A stretch of DNA of 62,290 nt, the filler included, from Sandaracinaceae bacterium (GTDB lineage: Bacteria; Myxococcota_A; Polyangia; Polyangiales; JADJQN01), in NCBI GenBank assembly GCA_947483975.1. It is 12 parts of 12 records of this genome, joined end to end, with 100 filler letters (N's around TTAATTAATTAA, not from the genome) between each part and the next. Parts side by side here need not be neighbours in the genome. Positions count along the whole stretch, not along the records: positions 52,214 to 57,205 come from CANKOL010000381.1; 11 more parts are not named here. One strand, 5' to 3'. Below the pieces are notes generated by a model, which was not told the origin of the DNA, did no database searches, and was given only the letters and a program-made list of their open reading frames with translations. The translations under genes and the position numbers were made by a program. Of the stretch, positions 4,337-57,305 are shown in pieces. How positions within the stretch are numbered: the first letter of the stretch is position 1; each line of letters begins with the position of its first letter.

Positions 4337-5187
4337 ATGCACCGCCTCTCTATGCAGTCCGCGCTCACGCTGTCGCTCGCCGGGATTCTGTGCGCTGTTG
4401 CGCTCGGCGCCGCGCCTCGAGTTCAGGCCCAGGCTGAGCAAGTCAAGCCGTACTTCATGGTGATCGTCGACAACTCCGGGTCGATGACCGCCGCGACCAC
4501 GGGCGCCGGCACGAACTCGTGCGGGCAAGCGCGGACGCGCATGAGCGACGCCAAGTGCGTGCTGCAGCGCGTGCTCGCGGGCTCAGGCGACGCGGTCTTC
4601 GGTCTCGAGCGCTTCCGCGTCGGCACGGCGGGGACTGCGTCGAGCCCATGCGTGTCCACCTGCGGCTGCACCTCCGGCCTCGTGAACACGTGCACGGGCG
4701 ATGCGTCCGCCCCCAACAGCGTCGCCGCCCACGGTCAGGTGCTCGTCCCGATCCAGGAGAGCAACACCGCGAGCCTGCTGGAGTGGGTCAACTTCACGGC
4801 CGCCTCGTGCGGCGCGACCGCGGGGACGAACCCTGAGTTGACCGCGGTCTCCAACACCCCGCTCGCTGGCGCGCTCCGCGGCGCACGCCAGTACTACTCG
4901 GGAGGGGACCTGACGTTCCCCACGAGCCCGATCATCGGCGACACGTTCCGGGGCTGCCGCCCCTACTACGTCATCCTCCTGACCGACGGCGACGAGACGT
5001 GCTCGACGCAGGCGACGTCCAACCTCGCCGCGACCGAGCTGCGCACGACGGTAGTGCCCGGGGTCGGCACCATCGACATCAAGACGTTCGTGATCGGCTT
5101 CGGGTACACGGCGGCCGACCCCGGCATCGAGGGCCTCGCGAGCGCCGGTGGCACCGACGCGCCCGGCGCGAACCTGGGCTTCTACGC
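4337..5187 (+). CDS. Secreted VWA-domain Cys-rich protein, 3'-truncated
   Basis: ATG 4337 with AGGA upstream; signal peptide; MIDAS DNSGS; TPLAGAL; VILLTDGDETC; TFVIGF. Paralogous to the gene at 43305. Confidence 0.8.
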
Positions 5188-5287
5188 NNNNNNNNNNNNN
5201 NNNNNNNNNNNNNNNNNNNNNNNNNNNNNNNTTAATTAATTAANNNNNNNNNNNNNNNNNNNNNNNNNNNNNNNNNNNNNNNNNNNN
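5188..5287. other. Artificial contig linker
   Basis: 44 N + TTAATTAATTAA + 44 N. Confidence 0.99.
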
Positions 5288-5321
5288 CGCACCCGGGCAG
5301 TGCGCTCCCCGAGGTGGTCGA

Positions 5322-6233
5322 GTGGTGAGCCGCGCCCTCGCGACCTTCGCGGCGTTCGCGCTCGCCGCGAGCCTCGCGCTCAGCGCGCAGGCCCAGGACG
5401 CGACGCAGGCGCGCGCCCTCTTCGAGCGGGGCCGCGCGAGCTCCGCCGCGGAGCAGTGGGTCGAAGCGCTCGACCTCTTCCAGCGCTCGCGCGCGATCGT
5501 CGAGCGCCCGGGGACGGTGTTCAACATCGCCGCCGTGCTCGTGCGACTCGGCCGGGCGCGCGAGGCGATGGAGGCGATCGACCGCTTCCTCGCGATCGCC
5601 GACGTGCGCCGTGATGCGGCGATGCGCGCGACGGCGAGCACGCTGCGCACGACCGCCGAGGCGAGCCTGCGGCACGTGGTGCTGCGCGTCTCGCCGGACG
5701 CCGCGCGCGTCGAGGTCGACGGCCAGCCGGTCGACTCGAGCGGCACGCTGCGCTCGCTGCTGCTCGACCCTGGCGCGCACTCCATCGCCGTCTCGCTCGA
5801 TGGGCACGAGACGGCGCGCTTCGACCTCGCGCCCGGAGACGACGCGCGTGAGGTGACGCTCCGCCCGCGTGACGGGACGCTCGTCGTCCGAAGCTCGGTG
5901 CCCACGGCCACGATCGCGATCGACGGCGAAGGCGCGGGCATCGGCCAGGCGGAGCGCACCGTCGCGCCCGGCCCGCATCAGGTCGCGCTCGCGGCCGAGG
6001 GCTACCTCGGCTTCCTGCGCACCGTCGAGATCAGCCCGGGCGAGCGCGCGCTCGTCGAGGCGGCGCTCGACCCCGAGCCTCAGCGCCACAGCGTGCTGGC
6101 GAGCCCTGTTTTCTGGGGGCTGACCGCGGGCGGCGTCGCGGTCATCGTCGTGTCGTCGATCCTGATCGCCCTCGCGACGGCGAGCACCGACGCGCCCTAT
6201 GGCGGGTCGTCGAACGTCGTGCTCGCGCCGTAG
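5322..6233 (+). CDS. TPR + PEGA domain secreted protein
   Basis: Signal peptide ending AQA-Q; TPR-like ARALFERG...FNIAAVLVRLGRAREA; two PEGA-like beta repeats; C-terminal hydrophobic segment. Confidence 0.8.
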   Translation: MVSRALATFAAFALAASLALSAQAQDATQARALFERGRASSAAEQWVEALDLFQRSRAIVERPGTVFNIAAVLVRLGRAREAMEAIDRFLAIADVRRDAAMRATASTLRTTAEASLRHVVLRVSPDAARVEVDGQPVDSSGTLRSLLLDPGAHSIAVSLDGHETARFDLAPGDDAREVTLRPRDGTLVVRSSVPTATIAIDGEGAGIGQAERTVAPGPHQVALAAEGYLGFLRTVEISPGERALVEAALDPEPQRHSVLASPVFWGLTAGGVAVIVVSSILIALATASTDAPYGGSSNVVLAP

Positions 6234-6342
6234 CGCGCCGCCGGCCCGCGCGAGATTCGTCGCGAACAGCCTCCCTTTGCGCTGAACATCGTTCAACACA
6301 GCGCGCGACTCTGGCATTCTCTCCGCACCCGGAGGTCTGCCC

Positions 6343-8334
6343 TTGTCGACTCGTCTGTACTCGCGCGCGCTCGTGTTCGCTGGTCTGCTCGCCTTCCTCG
6401 TCGGCTGCGGCGACGACGCGACCCCGACGCCTACACCCACGCCTCCGATCGAGCTCGGCATCGCGCAGGACTGCAACCCGCTCGCGATGAGCAGCGAGTG
6501 CCTGTTCCCCTTCCCGAGCCGCTATTTCCAAGCGGCTGACGCGACGACGCCGACCGGGGTGCGCGGCTCGCTGCACGATCACGTCATCGAGTTCCCGCCG
6601 GACTCCGACCCGCTCGATCTCACGGTCTTCAACCGCGCGGACGGCTACTCGCCCTCGGCGCCGCTGCTCGTGCACCTCGGCGTCGACGTCGCGCCGACGC
6701 AGCTCGTCGGGCAGCGCGACCCGGCGCATTGGGCGTCCGCGGGGGCGCCGATCGCGCTCTTCGACATGGAGACGGGCGACCAAGTCCCGATCCTCACCGA
6801 GATGGATCAGAACGCCCGCACGGCGCAGTACGTCGGGCGGCACGCGCTCATCCTGCGGCCGATGGTGCCGATGACGCTCGGGCACCGGCACGTCGCGGTG
6901 CTGACGAGCGCGCTCCGCGACGCGACGGGCGCGGCGCTCCCCGCCTCGCGCGGCTTCGAGGCGCTGCGCGACGACACGCCGACGACGCACACCGCGCTCG
7001 AGGCGTCGCGCCCCGCCTACGAGGAGGTCTTCACGTTCCTCGCGAGCAAGGGCTACGCGCGCGCAGACCTCGCGCTCGCCTTTGATTTCAAGGTCGCGAG
7101 CGAGCGGCACGTGCTCGGCGGCATCCTCTCGATGAAGGACCAAGCGCTCGCCATCGCGGCGATGCCGGGCGAGCTCGCGTACACCGTCGACCGCGTGATC
7201 GACGCGCCGAACGCGAACGTGCTGAAGATCGTCGAGGGCACGTTCGAGGTGCCGACGTTCCTCCAAGCCGACAACCGCATCGCGCGCGACGACGCGGACG
7301 GCGCCGTGCTGCAGCCGACTCGGCAGAGCTTCCCGTACACGATGGTCATCCCCGCGCAGGCGGCGACGAGCGGGCCGCTGCCGCTGGTTCTCTTTGGGCA
7401 CGGCGTCTTCGGCGAGGGGCGCGACTACCTCGAGGGCGGCATCGGCACCGACCTGATTCAGCCGCTCGCGCAGGAGCTCGGCGCCGTCGTCGTCGCGACG
7501 GATTTCATCGGGCTCTCCTCGAGCGATCAGTCGCTCTTGACCGACGAGCTCGTCACGGATCTGAACCGCGTCGTCATCGTGATGGACCGCCTGCAGCAGG
7601 CGATCGTCAACAACCTCGTGCTCGTCGAGCTCGTGCGGAACGTCATCGCGGACGACCCGATGGTGCGCGCCGTGCCGACGACGCCGATGCTCAACGACGA
7701 GGTCTACTACTACGGCGTCAGCCTCGGTGGGATCCAGGGCGCGAGCATCGTCTCGCTCTCGCCGCGCATCACGCGCGCCGTGCTCGCCGTGCCGGGCGGC
7801 GCCTGGGCGACGATGCTCACGCGCTCCGTCGTCTACAAGCCGATCAAGGAGCTCGTCGAGCTGCAGTATCCCGACCCGCTGGTCGAGCAGCTGTTCATCT
7901 CGCTCCTGCAGGAGCGCTTCGACGGCTCGGACGGCGCCAACGTCGCGCGGCTCGCGTTCCGCGACCCGCTGCCCGACGCGCCTGCCTCGCGCCGCGTCGC
8001 GATCTTCGAGGCGATCGGCGACTGCCAGGTGCCGAACCTCGTCACGCGCATCCTCGCGCGCGCGATGGGCGCCAAGCAGATGACGCCGTTCGTCGAGGAG
8101 ATCCCGCTCCTCGAGACGACGACCTCGCCGACGACGGAGCCGACGGTGATCCAGCTGCGGATGCCGACGAACCTCGCCGAGTACACGCCGCCCGACGAGA
8201 ACCTCGTGCCCGATCACGACAACGGCACGCACTCCGGCTCGCTGTCCCTGCCGAACGCGCTCGACCTCGTGCGCGGCGTGCTCGGCGAGGACGTGATCCG
8301 GCAGACCTGCATGGGCGCGTGCGACCCTGACTGA
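6343..8334 (+). CDS. Lipoprotein with alpha/beta-hydrolase (lipase-like) domain
   Basis: Lipobox LVGC; CLFPFPS and DGYSP N-terminal motifs; FGHGVFG; nucleophile elbow GVSLGG; GDCQVPN; C-terminal His. Confidence 0.78.
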   Translation: MSTRLYSRALVFAGLLAFLVGCGDDATPTPTPTPPIELGIAQDCNPLAMSSECLFPFPSRYFQAADATTPTGVRGSLHDHVIEFPPDSDPLDLTVFNRADGYSPSAPLLVHLGVDVAPTQLVGQRDPAHWASAGAPIALFDMETGDQVPILTEMDQNARTAQYVGRHALILRPMVPMTLGHRHVAVLTSALRDATGAALPASRGFEALRDDTPTTHTALEASRPAYEEVFTFLASKGYARADLALAFDFKVASERHVLGGILSMKDQALAIAAMPGELAYTVDRVIDAPNANVLKIVEGTFEVPTFLQADNRIARDDADGAVLQPTRQSFPYTMVIPAQAATSGPLPLVLFGHGVFGEGRDYLEGGIGTDLIQPLAQELGAVVVATDFIGLSSSDQSLLTDELVTDLNRVVIVMDRLQQAIVNNLVLVELVRNVIADDPMVRAVPTTPMLNDEVYYYGVSLGGIQGASIVSLSPRITRAVLAVPGGAWATMLTRSVVYKPIKELVELQYPDPLVEQLFISLLQERFDGSDGANVARLAFRDPLPDAPASRRVAIFEAIGDCQVPNLVTRILARAMGAKQMTPFVEEIPLLETTTSPTTEPTVIQLRMPTNLAEYTPPDENLVPDHDNGTHSGSLSLPNALDLVRGVLGEDVIRQTCMGACDPD

Positions 8335-10463: not shown

Positions 10464-10563
10464 NNNNNNNNNNNNNNNNNNNNNNNNNNNNNNNNNNNNN
10501 NNNNNNNTTAATTAATTAANNNNNNNNNNNNNNNNNNNNNNNNNNNNNNNNNNNNNNNNNNNN
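10464..10563. other. Artificial contig linker
   Basis: N44-TTAATTAATTAA-N44. Confidence 0.99.
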
Positions 10564-52213: not shown

Positions 52214-52860
52214 AGCGCCCAGCGGCGCGTCGCGAGCAGCCACTCATCGTGCAGGCGCCCGGTGACGAGCGCGGCGATGACGAACGCGAACGGGATCGAC
52301 CAGCCGACGAAGCCCGCGTAGAGCATCGGCGGGTGGATCGCCATCCAGTAGTTCTGGAGCAGCGGGTTGAGCCCCTCACCGTCGGCCGGCGCGCCGGAGG
52401 CGTTGAGCGCGAAGGGGTTGGCGGCGAAGAGCATCAGCACACCGAAGAACAAGAACACGGTCATCAAGGTCGCGAGCACCCAGGGCTGCAGCTCCGCGTA
52501 GCGCTTGCGCATCCAGAGCGTGCACGCCGCCGTGTAGCAGGACAGCAGGAACGCCCACCAGAGGAGCGAGCCGTCCTGTCCGCCCCAGAGGGCGGTGAAC
52601 AGGTAGACCGTCGTCATGCTCCGGTCGGAGTAGCGGCTGACGTAGTGGATGCGGAAGTCGTGCGTCTGGAACGCGTACGCGAGGAGCGCGACGGCGACCG
52701 CGACGAGCGCGCAGGTGGCGAACGTGCCCATGCGCGCCGCCTGCAGGAAACGCGGGCGCCCGCGTGTCGCGATCAACGCTGTCATCAGCGTGTAACCGGC
52801 AGCCAGCATCATCGTGCACAGCACGACCGTTCCGAGGGAAGGAATGTCGATTGGCGGCAT
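52214..52860 (-). CDS. ccmF: Heme lyase CcmF/NrfE family, 3'-truncated
   Basis: DFRIHYV, ALWGGQDGSLLWW, ANPF, DGEGLNPLLQN, IHPPMLYAG. Confidence 0.93.
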
Positions 52861-52955
52861 CGCGGGGCGACTCTAGGACCCGTGCACCCCTGCGGCAAGC
52901 GCCCGAAAAGTCGAAAGATCCGGTCGATTGGCCGCTGTCAACAGCGGCCGCTCGC

Positions 52956-54863
52956 TCAGCCGAAGATGACCGTGATCTGCTCGAGGTTCAGCCCGCCAGG
53001 GTAGGCGTACGAGGTGTACTGCCCGAGCCCGTACACGATGATGCCGAACGGCTCCGCGCCGCGCATCGTGTGCGTGCCGCCGTTGACCGGCACGATGCCG
53101 AGCTCACGTCCGCCGGCGACGCTCCAGGTGGTCGAGACGGGCGCGCCGTCGAGCACGACCTCGACGCCCGGCGGGCGCGAGACGAGCACGTACGACTGCC
53201 CGCTCGTCCCCGCGTTGTAGGAGCTCGGCGTGATGAAGGTGTAGTCGGTGCGGTACTGCTCGCGCGGCACGAGGACCGTCATGCCGGGGTCCCCGCGGGC
53301 GGCGGCGGGGCTCGAGTAGTTCTGGCCGAGGAGAAATTGCGCGACCTGGATCGCCTGGTCGCTCGTCACCTCGAACGGGCCGGTCGCGATGAACTGCACC
53401 CAGTCGCCCGCGGCGAGCGTCGCGGTGCTGATGCCGCCCTGCGGCGGGTTGACGTTGAACGTGGTGCCGTCGAACGCGGCGATGACGCGCACGAGGTTCG
53501 CGCTGCTCGTGCCCGGGTCGACCATCGGGGTGCTCGCGAAGTTGCGACCCCACGTCTGGATCGGCGCGAGCTGCGTCTCGAGATGGTCGCAAGCCTCGCT
53601 GAAGTACGGCACATAGGCGCAGACGTGGCCGCCGAAGACGGTCACCGGCTGGTCGGCGTGGATGCGCGAGCCGGTGAGGTCGAAGCCGACCTCTTCGCAG
53701 GTGTCGAAGAAGTCGCAGATGCCGAAGGTGCAGTCCTCGGTGTGGTGGAAGTTCGGGCGCGAGCTGTCGCAGTTCGGCGGCATCCCCGCGACGACGTGCG
53801 CGACCTCGCCGCGCGACAGCGAGAACGAGATCGTCCCGCCGCGCGGCGTCGCCGCCCAGCGCCCGCCCGCGTCGGCTGCGACGTTGGCGCTGAGCACGAT
53901 GCTCACCGTCGTCGGCGTCGGCGTGACGCCCACGACGGCGAGGTAGCCCGGATATTTGAGCGAGTCGGAGCTCGGGAAGCCGCCCGTGCTCCCCGTCGTG
54001 CGCGAGAGCGGCACATAGCTCGCGCCGACGTAGTCGCCGGTGAGGACGTGCTGCGGGAGGAGCAGCGTCGCGTCGTTGGTGTACGAGTAGGTGCCGCCGC
54101 TCTCGTACTCGAAGGGGTTGAACTGCGTGACCGCAACGGGCGCGCTCGAGGTGAGGCGATACGCGCCGTTCGCGACGGCGAAGCTCGACCAGGTGTTCGT
54201 CGGGATGTTGAACGACTGCTCGGCGATCCACGGCAGCGAGATCTCGGCGAGGTCGCCCGGCGCGATGGTGCGCTCGTCGACCGCCGCGCCCCCGCGCGTG
54301 ACGTGCACGACCGCCGGGTCGGTGCCCGGGTTCACGACGACGACGCGGAAGTCGAAGAGCGCGGAGTTCAGCTCGGCGGTGTTCGCGAGCGGCGTCGGCC
54401 AGTACTCGCAGCCGGTGTTCGACTTCGCGGCCTCGGCCCGGCCGCACGCGTCGTCACAGAAGCCATCACCGCCACACGCGGAGCCCCAATCGGCGCAGTC
54501 GCGGCCGAAGACCCACGCGCTGCCGTCCGGCGCACACGCGCGAGAGACGCTGCCCTCGCAGGAGCGCGTGCCCGGTCGGCAGACGACGCAGCCGAGCGTC
54601 GGATCACACGCGCTGTCGCAGGCGACCTCGGCGGTGCGCGAGTGCCCGTCCGTCCCGCAGACGTAGTGCGTGTTGCCGTAGCAGGCGGCCTGAGCCGGCG
54701 AGCAGACGAAGCCGCCATCGGGCGTCGGCGGACGGCTGCCATCGACGAGCCCGCCGTCGCGCGGCGTGCCGCGGGTCGGCCGGCCCCCGCGGTCCGAACA
54801 GGCGACGACGAAGCAAGAGACCGCGACGCACGCGGCGAAGAGACGAAGCGAGGATGACGACAT
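52956..54863 (-). CDS. Lipoprotein with IgGFc-binding-like domain
   Basis: Lipobox VVAC; Cys-rich N-terminus; SNTGCEYW, QFNP, SYTNDATLLLP, CDHLETQL.P..TWG, GDPGM..VP..QY, SYAYPGG. Confidence 0.85.
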   Translation of the reverse strand: MSSSSLRLFAACVAVSCFVVACSDRGGRPTRGTPRDGGLVDGSRPPTPDGGFVCSPAQAACYGNTHYVCGTDGHSRTAEVACDSACDPTLGCVVCRPGTRSCEGSVSRACAPDGSAWVFGRDCADWGSACGGDGFCDDACGRAEAAKSNTGCEYWPTPLANTAELNSALFDFRVVVVNPGTDPAVVHVTRGGAAVDERTIAPGDLAEISLPWIAEQSFNIPTNTWSSFAVANGAYRLTSSAPVAVTQFNPFEYESGGTYSYTNDATLLLPQHVLTGDYVGASYVPLSRTTGSTGGFPSSDSLKYPGYLAVVGVTPTPTTVSIVLSANVAADAGGRWAATPRGGTISFSLSRGEVAHVVAGMPPNCDSSRPNFHHTEDCTFGICDFFDTCEEVGFDLTGSRIHADQPVTVFGGHVCAYVPYFSEACDHLETQLAPIQTWGRNFASTPMVDPGTSSANLVRVIAAFDGTTFNVNPPQGGISTATLAAGDWVQFIATGPFEVTSDQAIQVAQFLLGQNYSSPAAARGDPGMTVLVPREQYRTDYTFITPSSYNAGTSGQSYVLVSRPPGVEVVLDGAPVSTTWSVAGGRELGIVPVNGGTHTMRGAEPFGIIVYGLGQYTSYAYPGGLNLEQITVIFG

Positions 54864-54919
54864 GAGACGCTCCCGGCGCACACGCGGCGCGCCGAGACCG
54901 TATCACGCCGCCCGGGGCC

Positions 54920-57205
54920 TCACTGAGCCTGGACGCAGCCCTCGAGCGTGCGCACGCCGCCCGTCGGAGCGGGCACGAGGATGTGGAACTCGACGCGCCG
55001 GTTGGTCTGCCGTCCGGTCCGCGTGTGGTTCGACTCGCTCGGGTGCAGCTCGCCACAGCCCCAGCCCTCGAGGCGCGCGGCCGTGATGCCGTGCTCGACG
55101 AGCCAGCGCACGACGCTCGCCGCGCGTCGACGCGAGAGATCGAGGTTGGCGTCGTCGCGACCACGATCGTCCGTGTGCCCCTCGATGCGCAGGCGCTCGA
55201 TCGCCGGATTCGCCGTGAGCACGCTGTGCACCTCCTGCAAGAGCGGGAAGCTGCTGTCGAGGATCACGTCGCGGTTGGTGGCGAACTCCACGCGCCGGAG
55301 CGCGAAGATCGTGCCCGTCTCGCGGTCGATGCGGATGGTCGCCGGGCAGCCGTGCGTCTCGACGGTGCCGGGATCGATCGGGCACTGGTCGTCGGGGTCG
55401 AGCACGGTGTCGGCGTCGTTGTCCGGGTCGGGGACGCCGTCCTCGTCCTGGAAGCCGTCGCGGTCCTCGGGGATCAGCGGCGCGCCGTCCGCGGCGTCGA
55501 GCACCTGATCGTTGTCGTTGTCCGGGTCGGGGCAGCCGTCCTCGTCCTGGAACTGGTCCGCGTCCTCTGGCTCCGTCGGGCAGCGGTCCGCCGGATCGAA
55601 GATCCCGTCGCCATCGGTGTCGACGGGGGCCGGCGGTTCGACGACCGGCTCCACCACCGGCACGACGACCGGCTCGACGACCGGCGCGACCTCGCAAGAG
55701 GCGGTCGAGACGCCGATCTGCAAGACCGCGCGGACGTCCGGCGCGCCGTAGCCGCGCGAGACGCCCGTGCCCGCCGCGAGGCCGACGGTCAGCGCGCAGA
55801 CGGGCCGCGCGCGCACGCCGCCGAGCACCTCGAAGGGCGAGGAATTGCGCCCGAAGAGGTCCGCGAAGCGGCTCGCGCCGTAGACCTCCGCGAGCAGCTC
55901 GAGCCGCCCCGGGATCAGGTCGACGCCTAGCCCCGCGCCCGCCGTGGCTTCGCTGCCAACGGTCAAGATCTGCGACGCCGTCTCGCGGCGCACGCGCGCC
56001 CCGAGGTTGAGCGTCAGGTGCACGCGCGAGCCGAGGCGAAACTCGCCCGAGACGCGCGGCAAGAGCGTCAGCCCGCGGTCGCCGGCGTACGCCTGCCCTG
56101 CGCTCACGAGCTCCGCGAGGGGCAGCGAGACGCCGAGCTGCGCGCCGAGCGTGAACAGCGCGCCCGCCTCACCGAAGAGCCGCGCGCGCCCGCCGAGCAC
56201 GAGGTCGCCCGGCAGCATCCCGCTCGTGCTGGGCACGCCCGCGACGGTGTCGCCGGTCATCCAGAGCGCCACGGGCAGCTGCCCGTACACGGCGAAGCGC
56301 TCACCGAGCCCGAGCGCCGCGCCGAGCGTGCCGACGAGCTGATTCGACACCACCGCCGCCGCCTCGCTGGCGGCGTCGCCCCGGCGCGTCTCGAAGACGA
56401 GCGGGTCGTTCGCGTAGTCCGCGACGAGCCCCGCCGAGAGCACGAGGTGCCCCGGCGTCAGCGGGCGCGACACGGCGAGCCCGTCGGTCACGGTCTCTGC
56501 CGCGCGGAACTGGTCGAGCGCGAAGCCGCCCGCCTGCGCGCTGGCGCCGCTCGGCACGGAGACGAGCAGCGCGAGCCCCAGGGATAATGCGGCGAGGGTC
56601 CGACGCCGGCGACGCAGCGCGAGCGCGAGCACCGCGACGAGCCCGAAGAGCCCGGCTCCGCCGCCATGCTGCGCGCCGCCCGGCACCGCGCAGCCACACG
56701 CGCCGCCCGAGAGGTCGCCCGTCGTCAGCGGCGAGACGCTGCCGTCACCCGCGCCACCATCGCCCACGCTGCCGTCGCGCGCGCCGCCGTCGCGCACGCC
56801 GCCGTCGGGCATGACGACCGTCGCGGGATCGAGGTAGTCCGGCACGCCGTCGCCGTCGCTGTCGACGAGCCCCTCGGTCTCGTCCGGGATGCCGTCGCCG
56901 TCCGACTCGGTGTCGAGCCAGTCGGGCGCGCCATCGTTGTCCACGTCGTTGCCGTAGAGCACGCCGTCCGCACGCTCGCGCGCGGTGGGGATGCCGTCAC
57001 CGTCGTCGTCGGCGTCGAGGTAGTCGGGCACGCCGTCGCCGTCCGTGTCGACGTCGACGTTTCCTGGGCGCTCGTCGCGCGTCGGGATGCCGTCGCCGTC
57101 GTCATCGGTGTCGAGGTGGTCCGGGATACCGTCGAGGTCCGTGTCCTGGGGGACGCCGCCGGGCGCCTCGATCAGCGTCGGGACGCCGTCGCCGTCGTCG
57201 TCGGG
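54920..57205 (-). CDS. Fusion ORF: Ca-binding DxDGDG repeats, internal MYXO-CTERM-like tag, second signal peptide, OM beta-barrel, TSP3 repeats, OmpA C-terminal domain (TraB-like); 5'-truncated
   Basis: Frame open from contig edge (PDDDGDGVPT...); GGACGCAVPG-TM-RRRRR-TM-ASA|Q; barrel (YANDPLV, GYGAPDVR); D.CP..PED.D.FQDEDGCPDPDND repeats; IEGHTD, NLDLSRRRA, NRRVEF. Confidence 0.88.
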   Translation of the reverse strand, partial: PDDDGDGVPTLIEAPGGVPQDTDLDGIPDHLDTDDDGDGIPTRDERPGNVDVDTDGDGVPDYLDADDDGDGIPTARERADGVLYGNDVDNDGAPDWLDTESDGDGIPDETEGLVDSDGDGVPDYLDPATVVMPDGGVRDGGARDGSVGDGGAGDGSVSPLTTGDLSGGACGCAVPGGAQHGGGAGLFGLVAVLALALRRRRRTLAALSLGLALLVSVPSGASAQAGGFALDQFRAAETVTDGLAVSRPLTPGHLVLSAGLVADYANDPLVFETRRGDAASEAAAVVSNQLVGTLGAALGLGERFAVYGQLPVALWMTGDTVAGVPSTSGMLPGDLVLGGRARLFGEAGALFTLGAQLGVSLPLAELVSAGQAYAGDRGLTLLPRVSGEFRLGSRVHLTLNLGARVRRETASQILTVGSEATAGAGLGVDLIPGRLELLAEVYGASRFADLFGRNSSPFEVLGGVRARPVCALTVGLAAGTGVSRGYGAPDVRAVLQIGVSTASCEVAPVVEPVVVPVVEPVVEPPAPVDTDGDGIFDPADRCPTEPEDADQFQDEDGCPDPDNDNDQVLDAADGAPLIPEDRDGFQDEDGVPDPDNDADTVLDPDDQCPIDPGTVETHGCPATIRIDRETGTIFALRRVEFATNRDVILDSSFPLLQEVHSVLTANPAIERLRIEGHTDDRGRDDANLDLSRRRAASVVRWLVEHGITAARLEGWGCGELHPSESNHTRTGRQTNRRVEFHILVPAPTGGVRTLEGCVQAQ

Positions 57206-57305
57206 NNNNNNNNNNNNNNNNNNNNNNNNNNNNNNNNNNNNNNNNNNNNTTAATTAATTAANNNNNNNNNNNNNNNNNNNNNNNNNNNNNNNNNNNNNNN
57301 NNNNN
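57206..57305. other. Artificial contig linker
   Basis: N44-TTAATTAATTAA-N44. Confidence 0.99.

Follow-up and report, generated by a model that had tools for sequence, protein, structure and literature searches.

MYXO-CTERM tags are short motifs with an invariant Cys, a hydrophobic helix and an Arg-rich tail, and the accessible text of a recent study notes that open reading frames (ORFs) with an internal MYXO-CTERM tag occur in rare cases (Guo, Haft & Wall, mBio 2025, PMC11980579). The same text describes MXAN_5598 of M. xanthus, which combines a large adhesin region, an internal MYXO-CTERM tag, an outer-membrane barrel and an OmpA domain; its authors read it as a probable fusion of two genes, TraA-like plus TraB-like, and proposed that the N-terminal part is processed and anchored at the surface. 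MXAN_5598 also appears, under the name 'OmpA domain protein', in a list of vesicle cargo (PMC4158809). Here we analyze a gene with the same four-part order, likened to MXAN_5598 from the accessible published description only, whose 3′ part lies on the minus strand at positions 54920-57205 of a 62,290-base stretch of DNA from a Sandaracinaceae bacterium (the window). This gene is a genuine, conserved fusion in a freshwater Polyangia-type myxobacterium, a single ORF of ~2000 residues, and we consider it likely that its product is processed by two cuts.

The architecture as such is already in print for MXAN_5598, as far as the accessible text goes, and the window gene is a further example. Features that we did not find in the accessible print record are a universal internal cleavable signal peptide, repeated fusion and fission, the spread over both Polyangia and Myxococcia, and the FapF/COG4313-like fold of the barrel; also new are two further internal-tag families with lipoprotein-type signals. 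In the portion of PMC11980579 available, no mention was found of a second signal peptide or of a signal peptidase cut for the C-terminal part of MXAN_5598. The Haft preprint (10.1101/2023.06.07.544157) has no mention of fused or internal tags, OmpA or TraB, and the literature searched held no related paper on a bacterial polyprotein split at an internal signal peptide, nor any on TraB with FapF.

The outer-membrane exchange proteins TraA and TraB offer a two-gene counterpart. The traA and traB ORFs overlap by four bases, and M. xanthus has a gene for a MYXO-CTERM protein directly upstream of one for a protein with an ~400-residue N-terminal region followed by OmpA (Pathak et al. 2012, PMC3325183, accessible portion); because of this overlap, a small change could fuse traA and traB. 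Six split relatives of the window gene have a similarly tight layout. Unlike TraA and TraB, however, the window has one gene, its adhesin part lacks PA14, and the TraB model scores 235-244 bits on it against a cut-off of 700. The likeness is not meant to imply a role of the window gene in membrane exchange.

Tripartite sorting signals in mid-protein are known from other systems. One occurs, by the accessible account, in a Haloferax volcanii ArtA substrate, within an archaeosortase system (Abdul Halim et al. 2017, J Bacteriol). Another defines the family midcut-by-XrtH (NCBIfam NF033207), within an exosortase H system, and in both cases the mid-protein signal is taken to be the site of the cut; this family name did not appear in the literature searched. 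On the junctions of two relatives of the window gene, NF033207 gave weak matches (14.3 and 12 bits; cut-off 45). In Bradyrhizobium japonicum, the FbcH cytochrome b/c1 precursor is a single product that is split by signal peptidase at an internal signal after a membrane helix. Unlike the window gene, FbcH encodes a respiratory-chain protein and has no sorting tag and no outer-membrane product.

The fused frame and its parts

Translation of the minus strand at 54920-57205 gives 761 residues without a stop, ending in the stop codon at 54920-54922 and open to the contig end; these are the C-terminal 761 of ~2000 residues. A reading made earlier from the sequence alone (the sequence-only reading) had proposed an uninterrupted frame from Asp-rich repeats through a tag into a barrel, and the 761 codons bear this out. 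As read from the translation, residues 1-128 (56822-57205) are Asp-rich, TSP3-like repeats of the DxDxDG type and form the adhesin tail, and residues 129-166 (56708-56821) are an Asp/Gly-rich low-complexity linker. Two TSP3-bearing NCBIfam families, BamM (43.8 bits) and MtsC (15.9 bits), match residues 1-128 weakly and far under their cut-offs, and Pfam TSP_3 is not among the Pfam matches listed for the window ORF.

The internal MYXO-CTERM-like tag occupies residues 167-202 (56600-56707). It was delimited by the TIGR03901 alignment and by its tripartite build, which consists of a Cys motif at 56707-56690, a hydrophobic helix at ~56659-56615 and five Arg at 56614-56600, and in look it is nearly identical to tags, scoring 31-39 bits, that stand at the C-termini of other proteins of this genome. 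The Arg cluster is followed by 559 more residues; the tag is thus not C-terminal, unlike MYXO-CTERM tags in their usual position. Residues 203-223 (56537-56599) form a signal-peptide-like segment with a hydrophobic core and A-S-A before Q224; the predicted signal peptidase I cut thus falls between 56537 and 56536, where the sequence-only reading had placed it. With the five Arg in front, this segment fits the Sec/signal peptidase I pattern by rule of thumb, and in stand-alone paralogues and relatives it is the N-terminal signal peptide that aligns with it.

The mature module behind this site was modeled with AlphaFold2 (AF2) from a 20-sequence alignment (A1), and the model has a mean predicted local distance difference test score (pLDDT) of 83.7. 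Residues 224-503 (55697-56536) are assigned by AF2 and Foldseek to an outer-membrane beta-barrel of the 12-strand type; AF2 shows 13-14 strands over mature residues 33-277, in blocks with pLDDT mostly 80-97. Its best structural matches are FapF (5o65/5o68, E ~1e-10) and the COG4313 channel 4rl8 (E 4.4e-9, template modeling score (TMt) 0.73, 12% identity). The likeness to these channels lies in the barrel fold (E ~1e-10 to 4e-9, TMt 0.59-0.73) and not in sequence (11-15% identity), and a channel function of the window barrel is putative. Pfam Phenol_MetA_deg (PF13557) scores 14.6 bits on the barrel, below its cut-off of 22. Residues 504-640 (55286-55696), defined from translation and alignment, comprise a Pro/Val-rich spacer and Asp/Cys-rich TSP3-like repeats with invariant D, C, G and P columns in A1; AF2 leaves this Asp-rich middle poorly defined (pLDDT 53-76). 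Residues 641-736 (54998-55285) are an OmpA-like peptidoglycan-binding domain, which is recognized by PF00691 (55.3 bits, cut-off 27.2), modeled with confidence and superimposable on OmpA-like domains in Foldseek with TMt 0.72-0.85. Repeats and OmpA part together match the periplasmic portion of Capnocytophaga OmpA (5wtl, E 6.5e-15).

The barrel-TSP3-OmpA build that had been proposed for this module is thus upheld by the models and by a Pfam match over cut-off. The accompanying description 'TraB-like' holds for the build, with its signal peptide, long N-terminal region and OmpA end, but not for the score, since the TraB model NF033763 scores 234.9 bits on the complete ORF and 244.3 bits on its C-terminal module, far below the cut-off of 700. 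The module shares the TraB build, yet is no TraB equivalog. The genome is rich in paralogues that combine Asp-rich repeats with OmpA: they lie on at least 10 contigs and have several different N-terminal modules, the barrel type of the window being present among them only on contigs C199, C185 and C350.

The window consists of contigs joined by spacers, so the 5′ limit of the frame is the end of a contig (C381, window 52214-57205, which carries the C-terminal part of the fused gene) and not of a chromosome. The N-terminus had been described as lying off-contig; this is correct in that the frame is open at the end of C381, but the N-terminal part is present on contig C11 of the same genome. The final 472 nucleotides (nt) of C381 and the initial 472 of C11 overlap end to end with 97.2% identity, 13 mismatches and no gaps, and C11 ends at the equivalent of window position 56734, ~25 nt before the tag. 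C11 holds an ORF of 1394 residues that the contig cuts at its 3′ end. Its first residues, Met followed by a hydrophobic core and then A-Q-A ahead of Q, were read by eye as a signal peptide; the ORF continues with DUF11, one Cys-rich acidic repeat (myxo_disulf_rpt), seven Big_13 Ig-like repeats (306 bits) and Asp-rich repeats; the C11 part also matches Big_6. A domain search of this ORF gave no match to PA14 or TraA. By these domain predictions the N-terminal partner is an Ig-repeat adhesin and not TraA. In the same-genus genome G001, the tag and barrel part directly follows, in contiguous sequence, a C11-type adhesin (61% identity over 1110 residues); C11 and C381 therefore make up one gene of ~2000 residues. 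Over the two contigs, adhesin, internal tag, barrel and OmpA domain all stand in one ORF in that order.

Fused, split and stand-alone relatives

A 321-residue query spanning the junction was run against 61 genomes, namely its own and 60 relatives of its order, and many of its matches cross the junction without stops. Inspection covered the 12 loci that this search gave and another 17 regions, picked because their open frames are long, and the counts of fused loci are therefore lower bounds. Fused junctions were found at 13 loci in 12 genomes (the window's own included) and fall into 8 coded families; the set includes G001, with 57-61% identity over the junction query, and two genomes that are each a single contig (G045 and G039). 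A scan of named genomes covered 78 loci, and the N-terminal part of the barrel was matched in 27 of them, once at a locus edge. Eight of these 27 are fused, one being a duplicate of the G039 locus, and the fused records are labeled Sandaracinaceae, Polyangiales, Haliangiales, Vitiosangium (a cultured strain), Myxococcaceae and unclassified Myxococcota.

Together these searches give 51 distinct barrel loci, a sample in which relatives of the query are over-represented. In 20 of them the barrel is fused to a tag-bearing part, in 24 it stands alone, and in six a tag-bearing ORF ends 77-189 nt before the barrel, three times in the barrel frame and three times in another; the remaining locus is at a contig edge. 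An internal tag followed by a barrel/OmpA module, which the sequence-only reading had suggested looking for in relatives, is thus recurrent, and close homologues are not always two genes: fused and split forms both occur. The barrels of the fused relatives are 34-66% identical to that of the window.

Each of the 20 fused junctions combines a Cys with a hydrophobic run and an Arg cluster, and each keeps the Cys within a G/S-rich context. In every one of them a regular expression found [AVSTG]-x-A followed by Q or D, 18-51 residues past the Arg cluster and preceded by a hydrophobic core. In 11 of these loci the loop and signal peptide together take up only 18-22 residues, and the Arg cluster stands directly before the hydrophobic core, which argues that the cluster itself would be the n-region; the earlier suggestion that it serves at once as tail of the tag and as n-region would fit the geometry of these 11. 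Signal peptides were called by a home-made rule or by an A-x-A regular expression, both rules of thumb rather than a trained predictor. The stricter, home-made rule placed a signal-peptide-like site at the barrel in 17/20 fused, 22/24 stand-alone and 5/6 split loci; as a chance control, the same rule gave 27 sites per 18,091 residues in adhesin bodies.

In split relatives, either an in-frame stop falls a few codons ahead of a new Met or the two frames overlap, as those of traA and traB do. Because two-gene relatives stop after the Arg cluster, the window gene is the fusion of an adhesin/anchor gene pair, and judging from the sequences a point change or a one-base insertion or deletion (indel) would be enough to switch between the fused and split states. 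In a tree of mature modules the fused rows are scattered, and well-supported branches force at least five changes of state. The clade of the window (8 rows, support 100) contains four fused, three split and one stand-alone row. Since fused and split states alternate among close relatives, it can be argued that both yield the same mature products. The fused Vitiosangium locus (L054) lies on the other main branch of the tree. Close relatives are also carried by metagenome-assembled genomes (MAGs) labeled Amaricoccus, Enterobacteriaceae, Rickettsiales and Enterobacterales (L051, L057, L062 and L114), and L051 adjoins G052 in the tree; these four labels are probably wrong or the bins mixed.

Processing of the fused product

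One of nine CPBP-family ORFs in the genome is a myxosortase, with 233.4 bits for MrtC (cut-off 195) and 108 bits for Mrt_core (cut-off 100), and the genome further contains two signal peptidase I matches over cut-off, three secretins and 24 MYXO-CTERM matches over cut-off. A two-cut polyprotein model would fit this complement of MrtC, signal peptidases I and secretins. The N-terminal signal peptide would start export of the adhesin through Sec, the tag helix would halt transfer and keep the Arg cluster on the cytoplasmic side, and the second hydrophobic segment would re-insert N-in/C-out as a reverse signal, so that the two helices make a hairpin. Signal peptidase I would then cut after A-S-A and free the barrel/OmpA module, which the beta-barrel assembly machinery (BAM) would insert into the outer membrane. 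On the other side of the hairpin, the tag Cys would be lipidated and the tag cut by the myxosortase (MrtC), the adhesin passing to the cell surface, probably via the type II system, and a hairpin of ~50 residues would be discarded. Because the barrel begins within ~5 residues of the second helix, the outer membrane would be out of reach without a cut there. An extension behind the tag is tolerated in one case, in that MrtX still cleaves TraA bearing a C-terminal FLAG extension (PMC11980579, accessible portion). We infer every cleavage step, the membrane topology and the partnership of the two products; by analogy with TraA/TraB, it seems plausible that the two are made 1:1 and associate physically.

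Several observations weigh against a genuine fusion that is cut at both ends. The assignment of the tag to MYXO-CTERM, made in the sequence-only reading, stands as to its Cys, helix and Arg build but not as to hidden Markov model score: in the profile scan TIGR03901 covers positions 2-34 of its 34 at residues 167-202 with 16.5 and 15.9 bits, under its cut-off of 20 bits, and TIGR03382 gives 12.5 bits, under its cut-off of 15.85. Among the 20 fused junctions TIGR03901 exceeds its cut-off in six and either model does so in eight, while in seven TIGR03901 gives no match at E up to 1. The strict signal-peptide rule misses three of the 20, which have a short hydrophobic core or an alignment anchor that begins further downstream. 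Some fused copies may be decaying or may carry sequencing errors. In G001 (locus L032, G001:C5 ~4469-4541) there is one frame change in the Ig-repeat zone, which is either a real frameshift or an assembly indel error, and a fused copy in G054 (G054:C161, L036/L014) has an in-frame TAG ~30 residues into the barrel and may be a pseudogene or a sequencing error. Given 13 mismatches in 472 nt, C11 and C381 may stem from different strains. The 46 mature modules were placed by a quick maximum-likelihood tree, five further rows having been left out as partial or interrupted, and 16 of its 43 inner branches are unsupported. Comparisons between sequencing runs, finally, were made with assembled contigs of other runs and not with raw reads, and in run X5, where identical short pieces tile the junction, positions 56692-56735 are uncovered; this gap, in contigs only, says nothing either way.

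That the frame is an artefact is close to refuted, whether put down to a lost stop, to a frameshift or to the chimeric joining of a MYXO-CTERM gene with a TraB-like gene that lies separately downstream. The source is admittedly a MAG of 524 contigs (5.29 Mb) with a completeness of 81%, the assembly graph branches where C11 ends just short of the tag, and the uncovered positions of run X5 fall in this region. The tag, Arg cluster and signal peptide (56707-56537), however, all lie on the unique side of the branch point, and contigs from two other lake-metagenome studies cross the stretch. Run X1 supplies a 3751-nt contig over 55900-57205 with 17 differing letters, and run X9, from another study than X1, a 1566-nt contig over 55911-57077 with 27. 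Neither alignment has gaps, and no insertions or deletions were reported across the junction in these two contigs. Changed codons are synonymous in 11 of 15 cases (X1) and 11 of 17 (X9) and none becomes a stop, in a tally that excludes 10 further differences not itemized; between tag and signal, X1 has two synonymous changes and V215I, and X9 two synonymous changes and G185A. Both contigs therefore keep one continuous frame where a lost stop or chimera was to be looked for, and the in-frame junction is repeated at 19 other loci, including those of two one-contig genomes. A 151-nt contig from an RNA library over 56493-56641 adds a weak hint of transcription across the junction. Taking the sequence comparisons together, we regard the fusion as genuine.

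A real fusion might still be processed at one end only, or have its anchor made separately, which we consider unlikely. The tag could be a relic stop-transfer anchor, so that signal peptidase would release the barrel but the adhesin would not leave the inner membrane, or the barrel could come mainly from an internal start codon, the fused product being minor or a dead end. Such readings gain from the below-threshold tag scores in the window and in 12/20 fused junctions on both models, from in-frame GTG codons inside the tag helix of the window, and from the scarcity of precedent: by the accessible account, processing of internal tags has been shown in no more than a few substrates, which belong to other sortase-type systems (Abdul Halim et al. 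2017; Navarre & Schneewind 1994; cited via PMC11980579). A relic would not explain, however, why the Cys and its G/S-rich context persist in 20/20 junctions when the barrels have diverged to 34-66% identity, and the tag of the window is nearly the same as its higher-scoring C-terminal counterparts in the same genome. Nor do the GTG codons of the window have a Shine-Dalgarno (SD)-like motif. An in-frame start codon with such a motif occurs at the junction in only 4/20 fused loci, the window not among them, so separate translation of the anchor is no general explanation; an internal start was accordingly rejected as the anchor's source for lack of a consistent SD-flagged codon. Moreover, in a frame that has no stop codon each ribosome that starts at the adhesin start must make the fused chain. 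Highly improbable, in our view, is a fusion in which the second hydrophobic segment is never cut and the product remains an inner-membrane hairpin protein with a periplasmic 'barrel'. The cut at this segment is a prediction from sequence rules, which leaves room for that reading, but [AVSTG]-x-A precedes Q or D in all 20 fused loci just as it does in stand-alone homologues with a normal signal peptide, the module closes, in its model, into a barrel resembling those of the FapF and COG4313 outer-membrane channels, and fused and split forms alternate among close relatives.

Other internal tags and genomic surroundings

Of the 24 over-cut-off tags in this genome, 21 end within 15 residues of a stop, two are internal and one is partial and near an N-terminus. 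With the sub-threshold tag of the window, three of ~25 genome tags are internal, each of them followed by a second export signal. The first further case, on contig C6 (31861-36393, minus strand; L129), is a 1511-residue frame with its over-cut-off tag at residues 573-607. Past the tag come an in-frame lipoprotein-type signal, whose hydrophobic core ends in Cys, and 903 residues with Cys-rich repeats; G045 (49-52% identity) and G001 (50-56% identity) both retain a stop-free junction. The other, on contig C246 (2905-7185, plus strand; L130), is a 1427-residue frame with an N-terminal lipoprotein signal and an over-cut-off tag at residues 835-868, behind which lie a second lipoprotein-type signal and 558 residues. 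Its junction is free of stops in G001 (75-76% identity), G045 and G002, and in G003 both flanks match one open frame, the junction itself being unaligned. Aligned relatives of both keep the tag and the Cys of the second signal, and the L129 and L130 families are conserved in two and four, respectively, of the five related genomes searched.

More tentatively, and with slightly less than even confidence in the two ideas taken jointly, the combination of tag helix, Arg cluster and following signal peptide could be a general, repeatedly evolved, self-splitting linker, and the barrel could be the dock of the adhesin. With such a linker, one ORF may give Myxococcota two envelope proteins, with a single Arg cluster acting in both signals, and the linker may come in a signal peptidase I form (20 loci, at least five gains or losses) and a lipoprotein form (two families). 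The FapF/COG4313-like barrel may in turn be a dock or conduit in the outer membrane, dedicated to the adhesin with which it is made. If both cuts occur in the window protein, it would be a rare bacterial secretory polyprotein whose chain crosses the inner membrane twice and from which two proteases yield a lipid-anchored surface adhesin and its wall-bound outer-membrane partner. The basic architecture being already in print, the surprise to specialists should be moderate. The locus and its relatives nevertheless offer a natural test bed for the action of myxosortase on internal tags, for what TraB-like barrels do for their MYXO-CTERM partners, and for the ease with which adjacent envelope genes fuse and split.

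The fused gene is flanked by dnaK on C11 and, on C381, by a gene for a predicted lipoprotein of 641 residues with an IgGFc_binding domain (52956-54881, minus strand; PF17517, 230.3 bits), whereas MXAN_5598 adjoins ftsA/ftsZ (PMC11980579, accessible portion). The only FtsZ_C match in the Vitiosangium genome is on contig C13, at 86 kb. The IgGFc_binding gene starts 38 bases past the stop of the fused gene on the same strand and may be co-transcribed with it. It is directly downstream in G001 as well (75% identity), and not so in the other loci examined; because this position is kept only in the same-genus G001, we do not count the gene as part of the system. A paralogue of its product, 29% identical, is encoded on contig C26.

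The window as a whole is made up of 12 short MAG contigs (C370-C379, C381 and C382) joined by artificial spacers that are no part of the genome, each built as an N run, TTAATTAATTAA and a second N run. The spacer between C381 and C382 occupies 57206-57305, others lie for example at 5188-5287 and 10464-10563, and features are not readable across any of them. On C11 (locus L038), a Pfam 'NAD-GH' match at 5150-6919 (plus strand) runs antisense to dnaK (5021-6916, minus strand); matches of this kind opposite hsp70 genes are a known shadow-ORF artefact and no gene. Elsewhere in the genome, ~2.3 kb separate the MrtC-type gene from one whose product ends in a MYXO-CTERM tag (C1:28552-28851, minus strand, and C1:31144-31245, plus strand).

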